64,000 nt of DNA from Bacillota bacterium (GCA_036743175.1 DAINQB010000001.1:69135-133134), one strand, 5' to 3'. Positions 5,991 through 59,671 are shown, counted from the stretch's first letter. The notes: generated by a model from the sequence alone, not told the origin. Translations and numbers: made by a program.

Positions 5991-7400
5991 ATGGTTTTCA
6001 GCAGTTTTACATTTATTTTTCTTTTTCTACCATTGGTACTGTGCATGTATTACATTGTACCGGGAAGAATCTTCAAGAACCTTGTTCTAATTGTTTCATC
6101 GTTGCTTTTTTATTCATGGGGAGAACCGTTTTACGTCCTGATCATGGTGCTTTCAATACTAAACGATTATACTTTTTCCAATTTACTTGTAAAGGCCAGG
6201 GAAAACAATCAGCCCCGGAAAGCCAGAGTATATTTTATTATATCAATCTTAATTAACCTTGGGCTCCTTGGCTTTTTCAAATATTACGGATTTGCAGTTG
6301 ATAATCTGAACAATCTTTTCAATCTAAACCTGGTGAATCATGATTTGCCTTTACCCATTGGCATCAGTTTCTATACTTTCCAGACAATGTCTTACAGCAT
6401 AGATGTCTATCGTCGTAAAGTTAAGGTTCAGAAAAACATTCTGACCCTTGCTACCTATGTGGCCCTGTTCCCCCAGTTGATTGCAGGACCCATTGTCAGG
6501 TATATTGACGTTGAATCCGATATGGAAAACAGGATTGAATCCCTTCCTTTGATATATGAAGGAACCAGAAGGTTTATAAAGGGGCTGGCCAAAAAAGTTC
6601 TGATTGCCAATACAATGGGGTTTTTCGCTGATTTTATATATAACGGGAACATTCTAGAACATGGCACACTTATATTATGGCTGGCGGCAATAGCCTATGC
6701 ACTGCAGATTTACTTCGATTTTTCGGGATACAGTGATATGGCCATCGGCTTAGGTAAGATGTTTGGTTTTAATTTCCCTGAGAATTTCAATCATCCGTAT
6801 ATGGCCACCAGTATCACCGATTTCTGGCGCAGATGGCACATTTCCCTCAGTACATGGTTCAGGGATTATCTGTATATCCCACTGGGCGGGAATAACGGTG
6901 GTTCGTTGTTCCAGATTAGAAATTTATTCATTGTATGGCTTGCAACAGGACTTTGGCACGGAGCATCCTGGAATTTTATATTATGGGGCCTTTATTACTT
7001 TGTTTTCCTGGTACTTGAAAAGTTCCTGCTTGCTGATGTTCTGAAAAAGATTCCTTCCATTATAAAAAGAATCGCTACTCTTCTGGTTATTACTGTCGGC
7101 TGGGTCATTTTCAGATTGGAAGATTTCCAGGCAATGGGAACAGCCCTCTCCCGTATGTTTGTGTATAATCCTTTGAATACGACTTCATTCCTTTTTGATT
7201 ATCAACCAATATTGTATACTGTTCCATTTATGCTGGCAGGGATATTCTTTTCTTTTCCTCTGTATAAAAAAATGGAAGACAAAATAACAGGTCCCGGAAT
7301 GCGGATGGCATTGGATGTTACACTTTTAATTGTCTTTATGGTTTCAATCATGTTCCTGGCAGGTGAGAATTATAATCCCTTTATTTATTACAGATTTTGA
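5991..7400 (+). CDS. MBOAT family membrane-bound O-acyltransferase (AlgI/DltB/PatA-like)
   Basis: 469 aa polytopic protein with conserved MBOAT His region (WRRWHISLSTWFRDYLYIPLGG) and WHGASWNF; 24 nt downstream of the DHHW gene. Confidence 0.8.
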   Translation: MVFSSFTFIFLFLPLVLCMYYIVPGRIFKNLVLIVSSLLFYSWGEPFYVLIMVLSILNDYTFSNLLVKARENNQPRKARVYFIISILINLGLLGFFKYYGFAVDNLNNLFNLNLVNHDLPLPIGISFYTFQTMSYSIDVYRRKVKVQKNILTLATYVALFPQLIAGPIVRYIDVESDMENRIESLPLIYEGTRRFIKGLAKKVLIANTMGFFADFIYNGNILEHGTLILWLAAIAYALQIYFDFSGYSDMAIGLGKMFGFNFPENFNHPYMATSITDFWRRWHISLSTWFRDYLYIPLGGNNGGSLFQIRNLFIVWLATGLWHGASWNFILWGLYYFVFLVLEKFLLADVLKKIPSIIKRIATLLVITVGWVIFRLEDFQAMGTALSRMFVYNPLNTTSFLFDYQPILYTVPFMLAGIFFSFPLYKKMEDKITGPGMRMALDVTLLIVFMVSIMFLAGENYNPFIYYRF

Positions 7401-7470
7401 TACAAAGTTGACAGGTATGCACATTTATATTCCCGCCTTAACAATACTTTTCCCTTAATTTTTTCATATA

Positions 7471-8268
7471 TCATGGCAGTTGATCATTTTTTCCAATCGC
7501 ATTTGCTCCGGTCTCACTCTTTTTACTGAGCCTTTTGATTAAAGCTAAAATCTTCTTACGCATTAAAACAACCAAAAGTGACATGCCAATCAATATAGCC
7601 GCTGTTATTGCTGCAGTTTTAACATCACCCTTTGATATCCTGTCTCCGACATATATGCTTAATAAGATTGTCGGAGAACCCGCTGTAACCGCACAAAGAA
7701 GAAATTTGGGAAGTGAAATCCGGGTATTTGCAAATATATATGGAAGAATCCCGTTTGGTACACCTGGTATCAGGAATAACAGGAAGGCCATGAACATCAG
7801 GTTGTCTGATTTTCTAATGAATGAGAAGTCCCACCTTGACTTGGTAAGTTTATCCTCACGTTTCAACCATTTGAAATTAAGTGCAACCTTTATCTGCCTC
7901 ACCAGAACGAATACCATTACATTGCCAAGAAGAAATCCGGTCAGGCAAATCAGGAATCCATAAAAAACATCATATGCAAGGCCGGCAAGAATCTGTATGG
8001 GCACAGCTGAGATAACCGCTGATATTATTTGAAGTGCTCCAAGAGATATCAGAATAAAAACTCCTTTGCTTCCGTAACTGTCTATTATTGAAACAACTGA
8101 GTTTTCATCATTTGTATGTGCAAAAATGTTCTTGATAAGGGGAATCAAGTCAATGCACATTATAACGATCAAAACGACCATCAATACAATCACTATGATA
8201 GAGAAGATTCTCTGTTTATACTTTTTCAACCAATCCAGCAAGCAATATTCCCCCCCTGACCAAGTCAT
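7471..8268 (-). CDS. TVP38/TMEM64 (DedA-related, VTT domain) family membrane protein
   Basis: 265 aa multi-TM protein; central VTT-like region (GSPTILLSIYVGDRISKGD). Confidence 0.55.
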   Translation of the reverse strand: MTWSGGEYCLLDWLKKYKQRIFSIIVIVLMVVLIVIMCIDLIPLIKNIFAHTNDENSVVSIIDSYGSKGVFILISLGALQIISAVISAVPIQILAGLAYDVFYGFLICLTGFLLGNVMVFVLVRQIKVALNFKWLKREDKLTKSRWDFSFIRKSDNLMFMAFLLFLIPGVPNGILPYIFANTRISLPKFLLCAVTAGSPTILLSIYVGDRISKGDVKTAAITAAILIGMSLLVVLMRKKILALIKRLSKKSETGANAIGKNDQLP

Positions 8269-52040: not shown

Positions 52041-52919
52041 TCAATGCTCCAGGATACCGAGTGCGTTGGTCCTGCAGATCTTCATATATGCGTCATCGGA
52101 AAGTTTTCCAAGGGCATTCATCTCATCAAGCCAGGATCCGAGCTGAAATTCGACAGATGGTGAACTCACATCTGTTCCATAGAACAATCTGTCCTGGAAT
52201 CGCTCCATGAACCACAGTCCGAAATCAATGTCCCTCATCACGGCATTCTGACCGCTGCCTGCTGACAGATCCCCGAGCAGATTGGGATAGTTCTCAAACA
52301 ACTCCACCAGTCTTCCCGGTTCAACCTTTCCCGCAGGATACTGTCCCCTTGTTTCTTCCGTTACATCCCTGCCTATCTCCGACCAGAAGAACTGGGAATG
52401 TCCCAGTATCCTGAGTCTCGGGTATTTGTCAAGGAGAGCTTCCAGCCTTGGCAGCCCGAGGTCGTCAACTATTCCATAGTAACCGCCCACCTGCGGAGCA
52501 ATATGAATGGTAACAGGCATGTCGCATTTTGCACAATGGTAGAAAAGATTGTCAACAAGAGGGTCATCAATATAGTAATTGAAAGTTACTTCTCCTACGC
52601 CCTTTGCTCCCAGCTTTTTATAGAAATCAAGGAAATATGAAAAATCGGTATCAGGTGAATTCTTTCCCATCGTGGGATGAAGGTTGCAGAACCAGTAGAA
52701 TGTTTCAGGGTAATCCTGTGCAAGCTGGTATGCTTCTTCGTTGGATTGGATATGAAAACCGAACTCCGGGGATATCCCGGTCATAATGACACCCTTTTCT
52801 ATGCCCCAGAGGTCATACTTCTCCCTTATCTGCTCCGGTGAAGCATAATGCTCATTGTTTCTGGGTCTTCTGAGCATCTGCACTGCCCTGGTGTGTACAT
52901 GGATATCGATTTTCTTCAT
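52041..52919 (-). CDS. Amidohydrolase-2 family (TIM-barrel metal-dependent hydrolase)
   Basis: 292 aa with N-terminal IDIHVHT metal-binding motif. Confidence 0.65.
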   Translation of the reverse strand: MKKIDIHVHTRAVQMLRRPRNNEHYASPEQIREKYDLWGIEKGVIMTGISPEFGFHIQSNEEAYQLAQDYPETFYWFCNLHPTMGKNSPDTDFSYFLDFYKKLGAKGVGEVTFNYYIDDPLVDNLFYHCAKCDMPVTIHIAPQVGGYYGIVDDLGLPRLEALLDKYPRLRILGHSQFFWSEIGRDVTEETRGQYPAGKVEPGRLVELFENYPNLLGDLSAGSGQNAVMRDIDFGLWFMERFQDRLFYGTDVSSPSVEFQLGSWLDEMNALGKLSDDAYMKICRTNALGILEH

Positions 52920-53046
52920 TACTGTCCCCTTGATAAAAAGTCTGCCCGGAACTTATTCTAACACATAAATAGCTTTGATTTGTACCATTTATCTGGGATA
53001 TACTACATAAAAAGTGTTTTATGCACGATTGAAAGTGTCAGCTGCA

Positions 53047-54415
53047 AGTCAAGTCCATAATTGTGTGTAAATTCTCCTCCGGAAAAATTCATATTGCTAC
53101 ACCTTCCCGAGGGTTCATGGCCGTGGGTCGGTCTTTTACATAATCATGATATTCTTCCATATTGAAATATTTCCTGCCACTTATCCATTTCTCATGCTGT
53201 TCCATCAGCAATGCTCCCAATAGTCTGATTATTGATTTCTCATTCGGGAATATCCGGATTACACGCTCACGTCTCCTGATTTCCTCATTCAGCCTTTCAA
53301 TGCAGTTTGATGTCCTCAGCCTTTTCCTGTAGTGCTCCGGTAGTGAAAAAACTGCAGTTATATCATCAAATGAATCATCAAGCAGTTTCATGGCCTTTGG
53401 GAACTCCTTCTTGTACCTTGCGACCATATCTGTTTTTCTGACAAGAGCACTGTCTTTGTCTGGTGCATTGTATATGTCAGTGAGATGTGCCTTGACCTCA
53501 GCTTTCCTTGTGTTTGGAACCTTGTCCAGCAGATTCTTTGAAAAGTGGGTCTGGCATCTCTGCCAGGATGCATTATGGAACTGTTTCTTTATTGCATTTA
53601 CAAGCCCCATATGGCTGTCACTTGTCATAATGTCAATGTTTGAAAGACCTCTGTCCTTAAGGGATATGAAAAACTTGTTCCATGACTCTTCGGACTCAGT
53701 GTCATCCACTGCAAATCCTATGATTTCCCTGTGTCCGTCAGTGATAATACCTATAGCTATCATTAGTCCCTTGTTCCTTACTATGTTGTTTTCCCTGGCC
53801 CTTGTGTACAAAGCATCAACTATTACAAAGAGGTAACTCTTATCAAGTGGTCTGTTCCTGAATTCAGCTACGATTGGATCCAGTCCCAGGCAAAGAGCCG
53901 ATACAGTTGATTTGGAGAACTCAGTGCCGCAAAGCTGCTGTGTAATCTCCTTTACCTTTCTTGTAGAGACACCATTGATTACCATTTCCATCATGGATAG
54001 TACCAATGCCTGCTCGCTGCGCTGGTATTCATGGAAGAGCGTGGTAGAGAAGTTTCCGTTTCTCAACCTGGGAATGGCCAGGGTGAGCTGTCCGATGCGC
54101 ACGTTCATGCTTCTGTCCCTCGTACCGTTCCTGTATGCGTTCCTGTCGTCAGATCTCTCATACTTCTGTGCTCCTATTTGTTCAGTTGCCTGAGCGTCCA
54201 AAACCTGGTTCAGGACCTTCTGCACCAGGTTCGCAAATGCCTTGTCTTTTGAATCTCCTGTAAAAAGCCCTTTAATATCTTCTCCATTCAGTGTAATATT
54301 GAATTGAGTCACGGTCTGAGTACCTCCTGTATTATTTATTTGTTATCGATTTAATTATACCGAAGGTCTCAGACTTTTTCTCTGAGTGAATTTACACCAT
54401 TATATGGACTTTATC
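53047..54415 (-). mobile_element. IS256-family insertion sequence, copy 1
   Basis: ~1.37 kb; imperfect terminal inverted repeats GT(C)AAGTCCATAATTGTGTGTAAATTC / GATAAAGTCCATATAATGGTGTAAATTC; encodes a 407-aa mutator-type transposase. Confidence 0.85.
53089..54312 (-). CDS. IS256 family transposase
   Basis: 407 aa with a mutator/IS256-type DDE transposase sequence; identical to the second copy. Confidence 0.9.
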   Translation of the reverse strand: MTQFNITLNGEDIKGLFTGDSKDKAFANLVQKVLNQVLDAQATEQIGAQKYERSDDRNAYRNGTRDRSMNVRIGQLTLAIPRLRNGNFSTTLFHEYQRSEQALVLSMMEMVINGVSTRKVKEITQQLCGTEFSKSTVSALCLGLDPIVAEFRNRPLDKSYLFVIVDALYTRARENNIVRNKGLMIAIGIITDGHREIIGFAVDDTESEESWNKFFISLKDRGLSNIDIMTSDSHMGLVNAIKKQFHNASWQRCQTHFSKNLLDKVPNTRKAEVKAHLTDIYNAPDKDSALVRKTDMVARYKKEFPKAMKLLDDSFDDITAVFSLPEHYRKRLRTSNCIERLNEEIRRRERVIRIFPNEKSIIRLLGALLMEQHEKWISGRKYFNMEEYHDYVKDRPTAMNPREGVAI

Positions 54416-54452
54416 AATATTAACAGTTAAAATAATCTATGCAATTAAATAC

Positions 54453-54764
54453 TTAGGCAAAAAAGTATACTATATCAGCATAACAATAATTTAAATCTAC
54501 TCCGTATACTTTATTAGTAATAGCAGTTGCGACTTCATATCCTTCAGAGTATCCTTGTCCTAAATGCTCTCCATAAGGACCGAAGAGATCTACCGCCACA
54601 TAAATATACTCATCATCACAATCCACTGTACCCCATCCACGACACCAAGTTGGATTATATCCACCATAAACACCGTAATCCACATCAAGCGCAAACACCG
54701 ATCCAACTACTGTAAATGAAAGTAACAATACAATAATCAGAATAATTCCTATTCTTTGTTTCAT
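54453..54764 (-). CDS. Small secreted Tyr/Trp/Gly-rich protein (paralog 1), unknown family
   Basis: 103 aa with signal peptide ending VFA; mature ~78 aa with 3 Cys; C-terminal motif EGYEVATA...VYGVDLNYCY shared with paralog 2; RBS AAAGGGGAAAGAG. Confidence 0.6.
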   Translation of the reverse strand: MKQRIGIILIIVLLLSFTVVGSVFALDVDYGVYGGYNPTWCRGWGTVDCDDEYIYVAVDLFGPYGEHLGQGYSEGYEVATAITNKVYGVDLNYCYADIVYFFA

Positions 54765-54820
54765 TCTCTTTCCCCTTTCAAAATAATAACACTTGAAACA
54801 TTGCTATCATCTATACCACT

Positions 54821-56395
54821 TTAATTTGATCTATAATTATATGTTGTAGTTTTTCCCATCCTTCCATTTATTTCCTCTAAAACTGATACCGCACCCATTC
54901 GGATAAAGTTTGTCTTATATTGCTTTATTGAGTCCTCAAGAAGAATATTTGAATCCAGAAAAGCTTCAATCCCATTAACATCATTAAATCTAAAATAACC
55001 AGCTTCAACATTAGTTGATCTAGTAAAAATCTGATTAAACACATTCTGTACATAAATCATACTACTTCTTAATGATTCAATTTTCTGCAGGCTCTCACCA
55101 TTATACGATAAGCCTTGTGATATTAAGCTGTTTGGTTTGATTGGTTTTAAGTCAGTAAAATTTCCTTTTTCAGGTAAAAAGGTATAAATCTCATCATTTA
55201 TTATTCTGTAATCAATGTTCTCAATACCAAAAGTAAAATCTAATGAGTAATCATCATCTGTAAAAATATTGTTGAATAAATACACCGTTTCATTAATATT
55301 TTCGATGTTTTTAGGGAACAAATAGAATGACAAATCACTTCGCACCTCACATACAAATTTGTCATTAATCCCTGTTAAACAGTACCCATTAACACTGTTA
55401 TATTGCTTATCTTCATTATAGAGATATAGATTAAAATCATCCGAGTTTGCCGAATATATATAACGATACTCTGAGGCAAAATCCTTGCTAATATTGTCTA
55501 AGTTCTCGATAAATACATTTCTTGTTTGGTCAATTGCAGGGTCAAACATATATCTATATCCATATATTGCCATCAAGTCTTCTCCGATTAAATTCCTGAG
55601 AAATTCGAGGGCTTCCTGTGAATTGTCAGAAAATACACCATCCTCAAAAGAATCCGTGAGAGGATTAAATGAAACTGTTGTATTAAATTCAGTGTTAAAA
55701 TAAACTCCATATGCGCGCATAATATCAGATGTACTTTGCGCTAAATATGGCCTACTTATACACAATGGATAATATAATAATTCCCCTTCATAATTATCCT
55801 TGCTCCTGCGAAGGTAGTCATAAAACTCGCTTAAGGTTTCTGGGACATTTAGATTAAGTTTGTTGAGAATTTCAGCATTGTAATAACGAGGAACAGCATA
55901 TTTATTTTCTATGGTTGGTACAGCATATATTGCTCCATCTATCGTTAGTGCATCAATGTAATCACCGTTGACATACTGGTCCCATCCATAGTACTCATAA
56001 TAATCGCTTAAGTCGTAAGCCAAATGTGCTTTACTGTAGTCAAGAATGTCTGTATTGAATTGATATACTTGTCCTCTTTGGTAGCTTAAATATAAAATGC
56101 CTGTGGGATCTACTTCAAGAAGATTTTCTGGGCTAATTCCTGAATAATCAATATAAATCTCCTTATCAAATTTTTCTTTTATATATTTTTGCCAGTTATC
56201 AATGGCTTCATAATCTCCCCATTTATATACAGGGTAGATAATTGACAAGTTATTGATATATTCACTAGGAACCACATTTTTATCCTCAACATTTACATTA
56301 GGTATTTTAGTAATATCGGGATTTTGTTCTTTACTGCCACAAGCAACCATTGATACAATAATGACCAATATAATATATATTAATACTTTTTTCAC
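54821..56395 (-). CDS. Orphan extracellular solute-binding-like lipoprotein (SBP family 1, LplA/YesO-like)
   Basis: 524 aa; GTG start behind GGAGG; lipoprotein signal VSMVAC; IDGAIYAVP motif typical of sugar SBPs; no permease or ATPase genes adjacent. Confidence 0.6.
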   Translation of the reverse strand: MKKVLIYIILVIIVSMVACGSKEQNPDITKIPNVNVEDKNVVPSEYINNLSIIYPVYKWGDYEAIDNWQKYIKEKFDKEIYIDYSGISPENLLEVDPTGILYLSYQRGQVYQFNTDILDYSKAHLAYDLSDYYEYYGWDQYVNGDYIDALTIDGAIYAVPTIENKYAVPRYYNAEILNKLNLNVPETLSEFYDYLRRSKDNYEGELLYYPLCISRPYLAQSTSDIMRAYGVYFNTEFNTTVSFNPLTDSFEDGVFSDNSQEALEFLRNLIGEDLMAIYGYRYMFDPAIDQTRNVFIENLDNISKDFASEYRYIYSANSDDFNLYLYNEDKQYNSVNGYCLTGINDKFVCEVRSDLSFYLFPKNIENINETVYLFNNIFTDDDYSLDFTFGIENIDYRIINDEIYTFLPEKGNFTDLKPIKPNSLISQGLSYNGESLQKIESLRSSMIYVQNVFNQIFTRSTNVEAGYFRFNDVNGIEAFLDSNILLEDSIKQYKTNFIRMGAVSVLEEINGRMGKTTTYNYRSN

Positions 56396-56435
56396 TCATT
56401 GCCTCCACTAAAATATTGATGGTAGCATAGAATTA

Positions 56436-56765
56436 TTATTTAAACATCCAATATGGGGCATTTACATAACAATAGTTAGGGTCATACCCCCAAACCCTAG
56501 GTGTATCTGCCGTAGCCCATCCAAAGCCTTCGCCATCATCCTGAGCTAATAACCAATTAGAACCAACCAGTCTTAGTTCTGCTGTTATATATATGTAGTA
56601 ACTTGGGAAATAACCTATTTCTGCCCATCCAGCTACCCAATAATCATCTTCGACTTGGTCATATGCGCCATAAGCCCAAAAGTGATATCCATCTGTTGCA
56701 GAAACTGTCGACATAAAAGAAAACACAACAGCAATCAAAATAAACAATATTAATATTTTTTTCAT
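56436..56765 (-). CDS. Small secreted Tyr/Trp/Gly-rich protein (paralog 2), unknown family
   Basis: Track ORF starts at a TTG (56783); the likely start is ATG MKKILILF at 56765 behind RBS GAGAGAAGGGG. Signal peptide ends VSA; mature ~86 aa; C-terminus EGFGWATAD...VWGYDPNYCY is homologous to paralog 1. Confidence 0.6.
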   Translation of the reverse strand: MKKILILFILIAVVFSFMSTVSATDGYHFWAYGAYDQVEDDYWVAGWAEIGYFPSYYIYITAELRLVGSNWLLAQDDGEGFGWATADTPRVWGYDPNYCYVNAPYWMFK

Positions 56766-57359
56766 ATTTTCCCCTTCTCTCAATTTGCTTTTATTTCTAT
56801 ACTACCACCATTTATAGTATAGCGTATGATTACTTACTAGTCAATTAATTTTATTTCTTCTGTTTCTAAACGAAAGATGATATCTAATAAGTGTATTTTT
56901 ACTCCTTATGACAAGTGTAATACTCCTCCCATATGTTCATTTTTTGAAAATTAACTAGAATCCTTCGATTTAATTTAGTGTCCAAGCCCTTTATCCGTAT
57001 TCACCTTCTAAGATTCTAAATCTTACAATGACTGTAAATTTATATAGGCCATATTCATATGAACTTTTAATACAATTAACTTATAAAAAAACACTCTTAT
57101 TATAGGAATCTCCAGATAAGAGTTAGTAATGGTGGTGCGCTGATAATCTTATCCTACGTTTCAGTTCGAAAAAGTACAAATAGCAAATAGCATCAGACAC
57201 TGTTTCATGCCCTAATCCTATTAATTAGCCAGAAAATATAGAAATCAGTTTTAAACTTACTATTATTTTTAAAGCTATTGTATTTTAACGTATATATATC
57301 TATAATTATATTGAATTTATTTTACATTGACTACCATTTCTTTATAACGAGGAATAAAT

Positions 57360-58725
57360 AGTTAAGTCCATATTTGTGTGTAAATTCTCCTCCGGAAAAA
57401 TTCATATTGCTACACCTTCCCGAGGGTTCATGGCCGTGGGTCGGTCTTTTACATAATCATGATATTCTTCCATATTGAAATATTTCCTGCCACTTATCCA
57501 TTTCTCATGCTGTTCCATCAGCAATGCTCCCAATAGTCTGATTATTGATTTCTCATTCGGGAATATCCGGATTACACGCTCACGTCTCCTGATTTCCTCA
57601 TTCAGCCTTTCAATGCAGTTTGATGTCCTCAGCCTTTTCCTGTAGTGCTCCGGTAGTGAAAAAACTGCAGTTATATCATCAAATGAATCATCAAGCAGTT
57701 TCATGGCCTTTGGGAACTCCTTCTTGTACCTTGCGACCATATCTGTTTTTCTGACAAGAGCACTGTCTTTGTCTGGTGCATTGTATATGTCAGTGAGATG
57801 TGCCTTGACCTCAGCTTTCCTTGTGTTTGGAACCTTGTCCAGCAGATTCTTTGAAAAGTGGGTCTGGCATCTCTGCCAGGATGCATTATGGAACTGTTTC
57901 TTTATTGCATTTACAAGCCCCATATGGCTGTCACTTGTCATAATGTCAATGTTTGAAAGACCTCTGTCCTTAAGGGATATGAAAAACTTGTTCCATGACT
58001 CTTCGGACTCAGTGTCATCCACTGCAAATCCTATGATTTCCCTGTGTCCGTCAGTGATAATACCTATAGCTATCATTAGTCCCTTGTTCCTTACTATGTT
58101 GTTTTCCCTGGCCCTTGTGTACAAAGCATCAACTATTACAAAGAGGTAACTCTTATCAAGTGGTCTGTTCCTGAATTCAGCTACGATTGGATCCAGTCCC
58201 AGGCAAAGAGCCGATACAGTTGATTTGGAGAACTCAGTGCCGCAAAGCTGCTGTGTAATCTCCTTTACCTTTCTTGTAGAGACACCATTGATTACCATTT
58301 CCATCATGGATAGTACCAATGCCTGCTCGCTGCGCTGGTATTCATGGAAGAGCGTGGTAGAGAAGTTTCCGTTTCTCAACCTGGGAATGGCCAGGGTGAG
58401 CTGTCCGATGCGCACGTTCATGCTTCTGTCCCTCGTACCGTTCCTGTATGCGTTCCTGTCGTCAGATCTCTCATACTTCTGTGCTCCTATTTGTTCAGTT
58501 GCCTGAGCGTCCAAAACCTGGTTCAGGACCTTCTGCACCAGGTTCGCAAATGCCTTGTCTTTTGAATCTCCTGTAAAAAGTCCTTTAATATCTTCTCCAT
58601 TCAGTGTAATATTGAATTGAGTCATGTCTGAGTACCTCCTGTATTTTTGTTTTTTCTCAATTTAATTATACCGAAGGTCTCAGACTTTTCTCTGAGTGAA
58701 TTTACACCATTATATGGACTTTATC
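57360..58725 (-). mobile_element. IS256-family insertion sequence, copy 2
   Basis: Same termini and same orientation as copy 1; the encoded transposase is identical. Confidence 0.85.
57402..58625 (-). CDS. IS256 family transposase
   Basis: Identical 407-aa product to 53089..54312. Confidence 0.9.
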   Translation of the reverse strand: MTQFNITLNGEDIKGLFTGDSKDKAFANLVQKVLNQVLDAQATEQIGAQKYERSDDRNAYRNGTRDRSMNVRIGQLTLAIPRLRNGNFSTTLFHEYQRSEQALVLSMMEMVINGVSTRKVKEITQQLCGTEFSKSTVSALCLGLDPIVAEFRNRPLDKSYLFVIVDALYTRARENNIVRNKGLMIAIGIITDGHREIIGFAVDDTESEESWNKFFISLKDRGLSNIDIMTSDSHMGLVNAIKKQFHNASWQRCQTHFSKNLLDKVPNTRKAEVKAHLTDIYNAPDKDSALVRKTDMVARYKKEFPKAMKLLDDSFDDITAVFSLPEHYRKRLRTSNCIERLNEEIRRRERVIRIFPNEKSIIRLLGALLMEQHEKWISGRKYFNMEEYHDYVKDRPTAMNPREGVAI

Positions 58726-58756
58726 CAGCTGCATTAAATACTTTAAGAGGTGACAC

Positions 58757-59671
58757 ATGAAAAGATATCCGGCAGTAATAATGGCAACGGCAGTAATACC
58801 CTGGGACAATGATTATAAATTCATCCGGGATAGTTTCACAAGGCAGGTTGAGCACCTGTGCAACAATGGAATCAAAAACATCTACCTGTTCGGAACCGCC
58901 GGAGAAGGTCATGCGGTCAGCAACAGACAATTCAGTGAAATCACTGCATGCTTCAAGGACCTGTCCGGAAGCCTGGGTTTCACACCCATGGTGGGGCTGA
59001 TTGACCTTTCAGTGCATAGAATGCTTGAAAAACTGGATATTGCATATTCCATGGGAATCCGTGAATACCAGTTTTCCCTTCCTTCATGGGGAAGCCTGAA
59101 CGACAAGGAAGTGGATGACTTCTTTGATGTATTGCTGGGCTCCCGGCCTGACTGCCTGTTCCTCAATTATAATCTCAGCCGGACAAAGCGATTCCTGGAA
59201 CCTTCGGAATTGTTCCGGCAGGCTGAAAAACACAATAATTTTGCAGCAGTTAAATATACCAGAGGTTTGCCTGAAGACTTCATCGCCATAGCAGAATCCA
59301 ATACACCGCTCCAATTCTTTGTAACAGAAAAGAATTTCATGGAATTGTCACGGCTCACTGAGTGCGGTCTTCTTATGTCCGTGGGTAATTCAGACCTTAG
59401 GCGTGCAGTACAATTGGTCAGGCTGTGTATGACGGGCAGACATGACGAAGCGCAGGTCCACTTTGATGTCTTCATGAAGATTCGGGACGAATTACTGAAA
59501 GCCGTTGATTTTCCGGCCATCGACAGTGCTTATGATAAGTTATTTACAAAACTCGAGATTGAAGATTTCCCGTTGAGACTGCTGCCACCCTACCAATATA
59601 CGACTGATGAGGCTTTTGGGATTTTCAGGGATGCTGCAGCTTCAATCCTTGGCCAGAACCCTTTGGATTGA
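58757..59671 (+). CDS. DapA/NAL-family class I aldolase (dihydrodipicolinate synthase-like)
   Basis: 304 aa; LFGTAGEGHAVS matches the DapA-family GTTGE region. Starts 24 nt after the transposon TSD. Confidence 0.6.
   Translation: MKRYPAVIMATAVIPWDNDYKFIRDSFTRQVEHLCNNGIKNIYLFGTAGEGHAVSNRQFSEITACFKDLSGSLGFTPMVGLIDLSVHRMLEKLDIAYSMGIREYQFSLPSWGSLNDKEVDDFFDVLLGSRPDCLFLNYNLSRTKRFLEPSELFRQAEKHNNFAAVKYTRGLPEDFIAIAESNTPLQFFVTEKNFMELSRLTECGLLMSVGNSDLRRAVQLVRLCMTGRHDEAQVHFDVFMKIRDELLKAVDFPAIDSAYDKLFTKLEIEDFPLRLLPPYQYTTDEAFGIFRDAAASILGQNPLD

Follow-up and report, generated by a model that had tools for sequence, protein, structure and literature searches.

A probable composite-type IS256-family element around a foreign lipoprotein operon in an uncultured Clostridia population

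In a 64,000-nucleotide stretch of DNA from a Bacillota bacterium (GCA_036743175.1, DAINQB010000001.1:69135-133134; hereafter the window), we find what is likely to be a compound, composite-type element, namely two direct copies of an insertion sequence (IS) of the IS256 family around a foreign operon of 2.9 kb, situated in a 150-bp spacer between two divergent host genes. The whole 5,679-bp unit of IS, cargo and IS is bounded by one 8-bp duplication, CAGCTGCA. The features of the unit are as follows.

53039-53046: 8-bp target-site duplication, left, CAGCTGCA, directly outside the outer end of IS copy 1
53047-54415, minus strand: IS256-family IS, copy 1, 1,369 bp; end alleles L1 (53050 C, 53060 A) and R1 (GTG start, altered 5' leader)
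53047-53074, plus strand: transposase-distal terminal inverted repeat of copy 1, AGTCAAGTCCATAATTGTGTGTAAATTC, which agrees with the other end at 20/28 positions
53089-54312, minus strand: transposase of copy 1, 407 aa, GTG start
54388-54415, minus strand: transposase-proximal terminal inverted repeat of copy 1, GATAAAGTCCATATAATGGTGTAAATTC
54416-57359, minus strand: cargo, 2,944 bp, GC 31.6%; three co-directional genes and a 576-bp leader
57360-58725, minus strand: IS256-family IS, copy 2, 1,366 bp; end alleles L2 (57363 T, 57373 T) and R2 (ATG start)
57402-58625, minus strand: transposase of copy 2, 407 aa, ATG start; protein identical to the transposase of copy 1
58726-58733: 8-bp target-site duplication, right, CAGCTGCA, directly outside the outer end of IS copy 2

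Boundaries of the unit and its insertion site

A sequence-only reading of this locus had described two IS256-family copies in direct orientation, about 3.0 kb apart, with identical 407-aa transposases, and had noted the same 8 bp outside the outer ends together with differing inner junctions. Both descriptions were borne out. The cargo of 2,944 bp separates the copies, and CAGCTGCA adjoins the two outer ends, whereas the inner flanks are unrelated (AATATTAA at 54416-54423, GAATAAAT at 57352-57359), and neither IS has a duplication of its own. Counting both strands, CAGCTGCA occurs 11 times in the window, compared with about 2 occurrences expected from shuffles; we suspect that this excess reflects codon usage, i.e., Ala-Ala-type GCAGCTGCA strings. 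With that count, the chance of meeting the octamer at one particular position is about 1e-4, and the matching flanks are therefore unlikely to be coincidental. An allele with a single IS at the same site (contig L001, see below) also has CAGCTGCA on both sides, which independently confirms the IS boundaries and the 8-bp length of the duplication. The same end positions and duplication length are confirmed by a 91%-identical relative of the IS, in L070, which is bracketed by a perfect 8-bp repeat, AAAGTCTG.

The unit thus shows the structural marks of a composite transposon: two copies of the same IS around a non-IS segment, and one outer duplication. Because this duplication brackets the whole unit and neither IS has its own, two independent insertions around native DNA are excluded, and we assign next to no probability to that alternative. 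What speaks for it is that the IS copies are not identical as DNA. The sequence-only reading had expected them to be identical, which holds for the proteins and fails for the DNA (11-12 differences, near the ends), and it had held that divergent copies would argue for independent insertions; this rule is overridden by the duplication pattern. The matching outer flanks, with neither copy duplicated separately, effectively refute two insertions. In addition, the cargo is compositionally foreign, it is absent from this locus in 32/32 related genomes, and removal of the unit restores the exact 150-bp ancestral spacer.

The assignment of the IS to its family rests on both the transposase and the ends. 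The protein matches PF00872, the Mutator/IS256 type of DDE transposase, over its full length (E 1.5e-128), and scores 379 bits with the NCBIfam model NF033543, transpos_IS256 (cut-off 150), compared with only 22 bits for the NCBIfam IS6 model (cut-off 125). Its best named relatives are a 64% identical protein from Alkalibacter and proteins of 55-57% identity on Paenibacillus and Alicyclobacillus plasmids. The ends are imperfect inverted repeats, agreeing at 20 of 28 bp, with 24-nt arms that are 79-83% complementary. Length, one open reading frame (ORF), imperfect terminal repeats and 8-bp duplication are all as in an IS256-family IS. The GC content of the IS is 42.8%, and no third copy was found within the 64-kb window.

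Global alignment of the two IS DNAs places all differing positions near the ends, with none in the central ~1.2 kb. The transposase-distal end has two (53050 C/T and 53060 A/T, copy 1/copy 2). One difference, at 54268, is synonymous; the start codon is GTG in copy 1 and ATG in copy 2; and the 5' leader (54313-54375) contains three 1-bp indels and four substitutions. Comparison of the leaders (54300-54380 with 58613-58690) shows one added base in copy 1 between the Shine-Dalgarno sequence and the start codon. Eight further changes in copy 1 are clustered within ~70 bp; the leader of copy 2 is common to more distant relatives. To judge from the sequence, the clustered changes look like an imported block rather than scattered mutation, and the altered leader may lower the expression of transposase from copy 1.

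With related IS as outgroups, R2 is the ancestral type of leader, having six states in common with more distant relatives, and R1 is derived. At the L end of copy 2 (57360-57373), a G-to-A change that is unique among 11 related IS sequences lies four bases from the tip and converts the tip hexamer from TTGACT to TTAACT; the TTGACT tip of L1 is intact. Over a 6-bp circle junction, the L-tip TTGACT would combine into a promoter with a TATAAT that lies 11 nt inside the R end, and the change to TTAACT may thus cripple copy 2 as an independent IS. The outer ends of the unit read GGACTTGACT adjoining the flank and, with the R2 leader, GATAAAGTCC at the other end.

The unit is inserted between the following host genes.

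52041-52919, minus strand: amidohydrolase/TatD-like protein, 292 aa, left flanking host gene; both Pfam matches just under the cut-off
58757-59671, plus strand: DHDPS-family protein, 304 aa, right flanking host gene; start codon 31 bp from the end of IS copy 2

The two transposases are deposited at NCBI as HPQ45842.1 and HPQ45846.1, accession numbers that differ by four, and their 160-kb contig bears the label 'MAG TPA: Clostridia bacterium'. The window therefore belongs to a metagenome-assembled genome (MAG). Species-representative genomes scanned with the amidohydrolase gave 32 related loci, all in uncultured Clostridia-type MAGs or more distant taxa, and neither the transposase nor any cargo gene was found at any of them. 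In a sister species (L026), whose amidohydrolase is 90% identical, the amidohydrolase and DHDPS-like genes are divergent and 150 bp apart, with neither IS nor cargo in between. Excision of 53047-58725 and one CAGCTGCA from the window leaves 127 + 23 = 150 bp (52920-53046 plus 58734-58756), as in L026. The empty site that the sequence-only reading had sought in relatives was therefore recovered in its predicted length, though not in its target: the L026 spacer has diverged in sequence and lacks CAGCTGCA, and it thus supports the spacing, but not the target octamer.

On the right side of the unit (58726-58756), the duplication lies 23 bp from the start codon of the DHDPS-like gene. In every sample seen, the IS cuts this gene off from most of the ancestral 150-bp promoter region, and the IS end next to it yielded no outward promoter of consensus type.

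Alleles in metagenomes and the origin of the unit

Exact-protein look-up yielded many independent metagenome contigs; apart from one short recombinant patch, their identity to the window is 98.8-100%. In four samples (L001, L011, L012 and L013), of which L001 provides a 66.6-kb contig, the DHDPS-like gene, one IS and the amidohydrolase gene follow each other directly, with CAGCTGCA on both sides of the IS, end alleles R2 and L1, and no cargo. A contig from a fifth sample, L015, has the same amidohydrolase-L1 junction and ends inside the IS, so that only the flank on the amidohydrolase side is seen; the assemblies with a single IS at this site number at least five. The linkage of the DHDPS-like gene to an R2..L2 copy of the IS, and thence to the cargo, was assembled independently in L009 and L008, and the cargo with inner IS ends is also present in L005, L006, L062 and L063. 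Samples with the cargo include JGI 3300010349, ERZ18242372 and SRR5007228. Consecutively numbered JGI samples differ in this respect: 3300010349 is cargo-bearing, with contigs that break in the IS, and 3300010350 yields the single-IS allele on the 66.6-kb contig. Thus, we conclude that single-IS and IS-cargo-IS states both exist in one uncultured Clostridia population.

The linkage of end alleles is constant across samples, i.e., amidohydrolase with L1, cargo with L2, cargo with R1 and DHDPS with R2, with L014 as the sole exception. In this Logan contig, the terminal 40 nt of the R end, which are common to both alleles, could have let the assembler join the wrong ones. The short recombinant patch is found in L012, where 365 bp of the amidohydrolase gene (52121-52485 in the window) contain 70 substitutions, the remainder being 99.9% identical; this suggests a recombination tract from a related species, or else a chimeric assembly. 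Strain divergence gave no signal by which to order the events, because the population is nearly clonal and its polymorphisms are more than 1.5 kb away from the element.

The junction between cargo and IS also occurs in other outer contexts. L066 (JGI 3300036765), a contig of 1.8 kb, contains the end of the 103-aa cargo gene and the identical cargo/IS junction. Its IS equals copy 1 over the first ~486 bp, including all R1 states, and has 33 differences clustered in the last 400 bp. There follows, with no duplication, an AT-rich flank (1544-1813) with a PqqD-family gene (Pfam E 1.1e-8), which was not found in viral contigs. PqqD-family proteins are frequent markers of peptide-modification gene clusters. 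This flank may be the donor context of the cargo, or the contig may be chimeric. In L004 (ENA ERZ18242616, 380-1722), an unrelated IS256-family element, with a 395-aa transposase (35% identical), adjoins the cargo leader at a point corresponding to window position 57115, inside the leader; there is no target duplication, and the far flank is unrelated and AT-rich. In L005 (ENA ERZ27264001, 3299-3493) and 6 similar contigs, copy 1 extends for only 199 bp from its R end before unrelated DNA begins; for the 195-bp tail of L005, with 36% GC, we obtained neither a plasmid match nor an identification. The search for the same cargo linked to IS256 elsewhere, suggested in the sequence-only reading, recovered the junction (L066, L004 and L005); the complete unit was seen only at the present site.

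In the mechanism that we propose, one IS256-type copy-out/paste-in insertion would have created the CAGCTGCA duplication, and homologous recombination between the 1.37-kb direct repeats would interconvert the two alleles: deletion would turn IS-cargo-IS into single-IS, and Campbell-type integration of an IS-cargo circle would do the reverse. IS256 moves by copy-paste via circular intermediates and forms the composite transposon Tn4001 (PMC10266640). Recombination between direct IS repeats is standard behaviour of such structures, and single IS copies with the same target-site duplication mark the loss of a composite in the case of IS257 and Tn4003 (PMC6496109). The sequence-only reading had attributed the duplication either to the whole unit or to a circular IS-cargo unit integrating into a resident copy. 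As structure the former stands, in that one duplication brackets the unit; as to movement as a unit, no second site was found. Since both routes predict the single-IS allele, this either/or is not narrowed by our data. We regard transposition of the unit and capture of the cargo by a resident IS as about equally credible, each falling somewhat short of an even chance, with the remainder left to other readings.

If the unit formed elsewhere, was copied out by its outer ends and was pasted into CAGCTGCA, a single event accounts for the whole structure, and the single-IS alleles are later deletions. The outer ends indeed look ancestral (the R2 leader, and the intact TTGACT tip of L1), and the inner ends are derived (R1 with its GTG start and leader, and the L2 tip), as expected if function has to be kept at the outer ends only. 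With the cargo-R1 junction present in L066 and L004, the association of IS and cargo has a history outside this site, and Tn4001 is a precedent for an IS256 composite. However, the complete unit was not encountered at a second site, and among informative assemblies the cargo-linked alleles do not outnumber the single-IS ones. Moreover, if L066 were the donor, copy 1 should have the 33 differences of L066 (alignment columns 983-1361). It does not, and transposition of the unit thus needs an additional gene-conversion event.

In the case of capture, a single IS (R2...L1) was present first, and an IS-cargo circle then integrated by one homologous crossover, giving two hybrid copies. The single-IS allele has the exact outer-end alleles and both CAGCTGCA flanks in four assemblies, with one flank in the fifth, and this IS is complete and wild-type-looking (ATG start, intact tip). 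Copy 1 equals the L066 IS over the first ~486 bp and the resident type in its 3' part; if L066 is real, a crossover yields this product with no further events. One sample series contains both the single-IS contig L015 (3300036763) and L066 (3300036765), in which cargo, IS and PqqD gene are joined. On the other hand, deletion from a composite predicts the same single-IS allele, and L066, as a short-read contig of 1.8 kb across a repeat, may be chimeric. Capture also needs an IS-cargo circle and its donor in one cell, neither of which was observed. The IS256 family is not known to use a dedicated translocatable-unit pathway like that of IS26, which counts against capture as well.

Several observations weigh against a compound element at this locus, by whichever route. 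The source is a MAG, and short reads would probably fail to span the identical IS core of 1.2 kb, so that the evidence for the physical order is consistency between assemblies rather than direct proof. A single IS together with a separate 4.3-kb IS-cargo circle, or with a second locus, would be compatible with the same assembly graph, and the link from the cargo through a full IS copy 1 to the amidohydrolase gene is seen in the window only. The presence of the cargo-IS junction in other outer contexts (L066, L004 and L005) implies a history more complicated than one event. No complete unit with its own duplication was found at a second target, although in short metagenome contigs such an absence is weak evidence; the other cargo contexts are partial and lack duplications. 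Finally, no empty site within the species was found among the metagenome contigs, in which each DHDPS-bearing contig has the IS 31 bp upstream. A scan of JGI metagenome contigs for a 24-mer of the empty site gave 0 matches; a control cargo 30-mer, known in L009, likewise gave 0, and the scan is therefore uninformative rather than negative evidence. The scanned collection is incomplete, as it is without Ga0116240_10023591 (L009), which is reachable via protein look-up.

An artefact of the assembly graph would imply a chromosome with a single IS only, the cargo lying elsewhere and being threaded through the common IS core. The MAG source, the identity of that core over 1.2 kb, the single-IS path in five assemblies and the other outer contexts of cargo-linked IS (L066 and L005) are all consistent with such an artefact. 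We nevertheless consider it quite unlikely. The DHDPS-like gene, IS copy 2 and the cargo are joined in three independent assemblies from different pipelines (the window, L009 and L008). All contigs bearing the exact 407-aa transposase lie at the DHDPS site, with the DHDPS-like gene at the R end, and no other R-end flank was seen for an IS leading into the cargo. Sample 3300010349 has two open ends and no others, cargo-R1 (L009) and L1-amidohydrolase (L003); joined together, they give the structure of the window. The coverage of the cargo, as given in contig names, is also close to that of chromosome contigs from the same sample (2.71 vs 2.99, and 6.2 vs 8.3).

The cargo operon and its proteins

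The cargo consists of three genes and a leader.

54453-54764, minus strand: small secreted protein, 103 aa; signal-peptide-like N-terminal helix ending ...VFA/LD; paralogue of the 109-aa protein
54821-56395, minus strand: lipoprotein, 524 aa; lipobox MVAC; predicted MalE-like type-I solute-binding fold
56436-56765, minus strand: small secreted protein, 109 aa; ATG at 56765; the public gene call (P0030) is also 109 aa
56784-57359, minus strand: AT-rich non-coding leader, GC 26.9%, upstream of the cargo operon; promoter-like TTGACT-17-TATACT at 56844-56816

The cargo is foreign and AT-rich in composition, as the sequence-only reading had reported for these three genes: its GC content is 31.6%, compared with 44.2% for the rest of the window, and at third codon positions the cargo genes have a GC of 0.21-0.28, the neighbouring genes one of 0.45-0.52. 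For the 109-aa gene, a mechanical ORF call gives an alternative start, TTG at 56783, and 115 aa. The 576-bp leader contains no ORF worth noting; an Rfam search of the leader and the IS ends gave no match at E<=1, and promoter-like sites in them are no commoner than in shuffled sequence.

The sequence-only reading placed none of the cargo proteins in a recognised family, which is correct for the two small proteins and not for the lipoprotein. At 33% identity (E 3e-11), the 103-aa and 109-aa proteins are paralogues of each other, and both have signal-peptide-like N-termini. When 1.84 billion representatives were searched exhaustively with a profile, only two further relatives came up, which brings the family to four representatives in total. 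No fitting family was found in Pfam (at E<=10), NCBIfam, PHROG or the PDB, the last by profile search, and the AlphaFold2 model is unusable (pLDDT 51).

The match of the 524-aa protein to SBP_bac_8 (PF13416), with E 4.3e-5, reaches 23.9 bits and falls short of the gathering score of 27; the same annotation is precomputed on one homologue (P0002). Its AlphaFold2 model (pLDDT 83.6, pTM 0.82) was compared with the PDB by Foldseek, which returned 920 chains at E<=0.001. The top matches, all of them sugar-binding proteins or MBP fusions, have E-values of 1e-12 to 1e-14 and TM-scores of 0.44-0.56 (TMBP, Lmo0181, NgtS, FusA, AlgQ2). By its predicted fold, this protein is a sugar-type solute-binding lipoprotein. 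The family comprises 29 homologues among 5.8 billion proteins, the next best being 42% identical, and the homologues, too, are lower in GC than the surrounding DNA. There are no permease or ATPase genes beside the 524-aa gene in the cargo, and its homologues in L060 and L061 are solitary; the homologue in L058 has an unrelated ABC pair of the MacB type upstream.

No linkage of small-protein genes to the lipoprotein homologues was found in L058, L060, L061 or L073. A lipoprotein gene in L074 (Logan SRR30503389, 275-1287) is immediately preceded by the gene for P0157, which is distantly homologous to the small proteins, in the order seen in the cargo; P0157 in turn lies downstream of a membrane protein with sub-threshold similarity to holins. 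This similarity reaches only E 0.01 in Pfam and PHROGs, under the cut-offs, and the idea of a prophage 'moron' that it raised was not retained except as a lead. As to a phage or plasmid source of the cargo, we found no IMG/VR relative and no match to phage DNA or protein; the plasmid search returned a single marginal match, to an Agrobacterium solute-binding protein. Upstream of the lipoprotein homologue in L058, a MAG contig of 2.45 Mb, a called 'protein' of 142 aa (7200-7628) consists of about three tandem 38-aa repeats and is probably repetitive DNA rather than a gene. In L073 (Logan SRR7589087, 2275-9267), an 89%-identical relative of the IS lies between a frameshifted and a very distant member of the 524-aa family, close to IS3-type fragments and a group II intron reverse transcriptase. 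The 524-aa lipoprotein family seems to reside in IS-rich variable regions.

Judging from the modelled fold and the signal sequences, our guess is that the cargo probably supplies a carbohydrate-binding lipoprotein exposed at the surface, along with two secreted proteins that act as its partners. A more far-reaching reading, which we hold to be unlikely, is that the cargo is a self-contained and undescribed extracellular module, shuttled by IS256-family elements between AT-rich accessory DNA and the chromosomes of uncultured Clostridia. In such a module, the sugar-binding-fold lipoprotein would act together with the two paralogous small proteins, possibly as a receptor/ligand, toxin/immunity or surface-remodelling set.

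Comparison with known systems

For the sugar-type lipoprotein, the predicted fold matches that of MalE-like solute-binding proteins (FusA 5g5y, AlgQ2 1kwh, NgtS 5swa, TMBP 1eu8), and the lipoprotein signal is likewise that of MalE-like proteins in Gram-positive bacteria. The 524-aa protein departs from them in sequence, with an identity of only 11-14% and a Pfam score short of the cut-off, in having no adjoining transporter genes, and in the very small size of its family.

Among transposons, the nearest likeness is to Tn4001, Tn4031 and Tn5281 of staphylococci and enterococci, in which an IS256-family IS also stands on either side of a short cargo and the whole unit lies within a target-site duplication. 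The IS copies of Tn4001 are inverted, whereas those described here are direct repeats. The transposase chemistry of these elements, copy-paste through circles, is the same (PMC10266640, PMC6496109). The present element departs from the Tn4001 type in its only distantly related transposase and in having a cargo other than a resistance gene, and no second insertion site of the whole unit was found. The pseudo-compound transposons of IS26 and IS257 (Tn4003 in pSK1) also have direct-repeat IS around their cargo, with coexisting single-IS alleles that have the same duplication, and they gain and lose cargo via a circle of IS plus cargo (PMC6496109). This likeness is one of outcome only. IS26 and IS257 belong to the IS6 family, whereas the transposase described here is of the IS256, Mutator-like type, and the element is not an IS6-type translocatable unit; unlike in IS26, integration of a circle would depend on host homologous recombination and not on a dedicated conservative reaction of the transposase.

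Taken together, these comparisons identify the element as a well-formed but ordinary composite-transposon structure, the sole unusual aspect of which is the rarity of its cargo families, and they do not change the current understanding of transposons. It offers a clean instance in nature of an IS256-family compound element that lies outside the resistance setting of staphylococci and enterococci, and in which insertion sequences move very rare genes for secreted proteins and lipoproteins, beyond those for resistance. With both alleles present in one population, it could show, given long reads, whether IS256-type composites spread by transposition of the unit or by recombination into resident copies.

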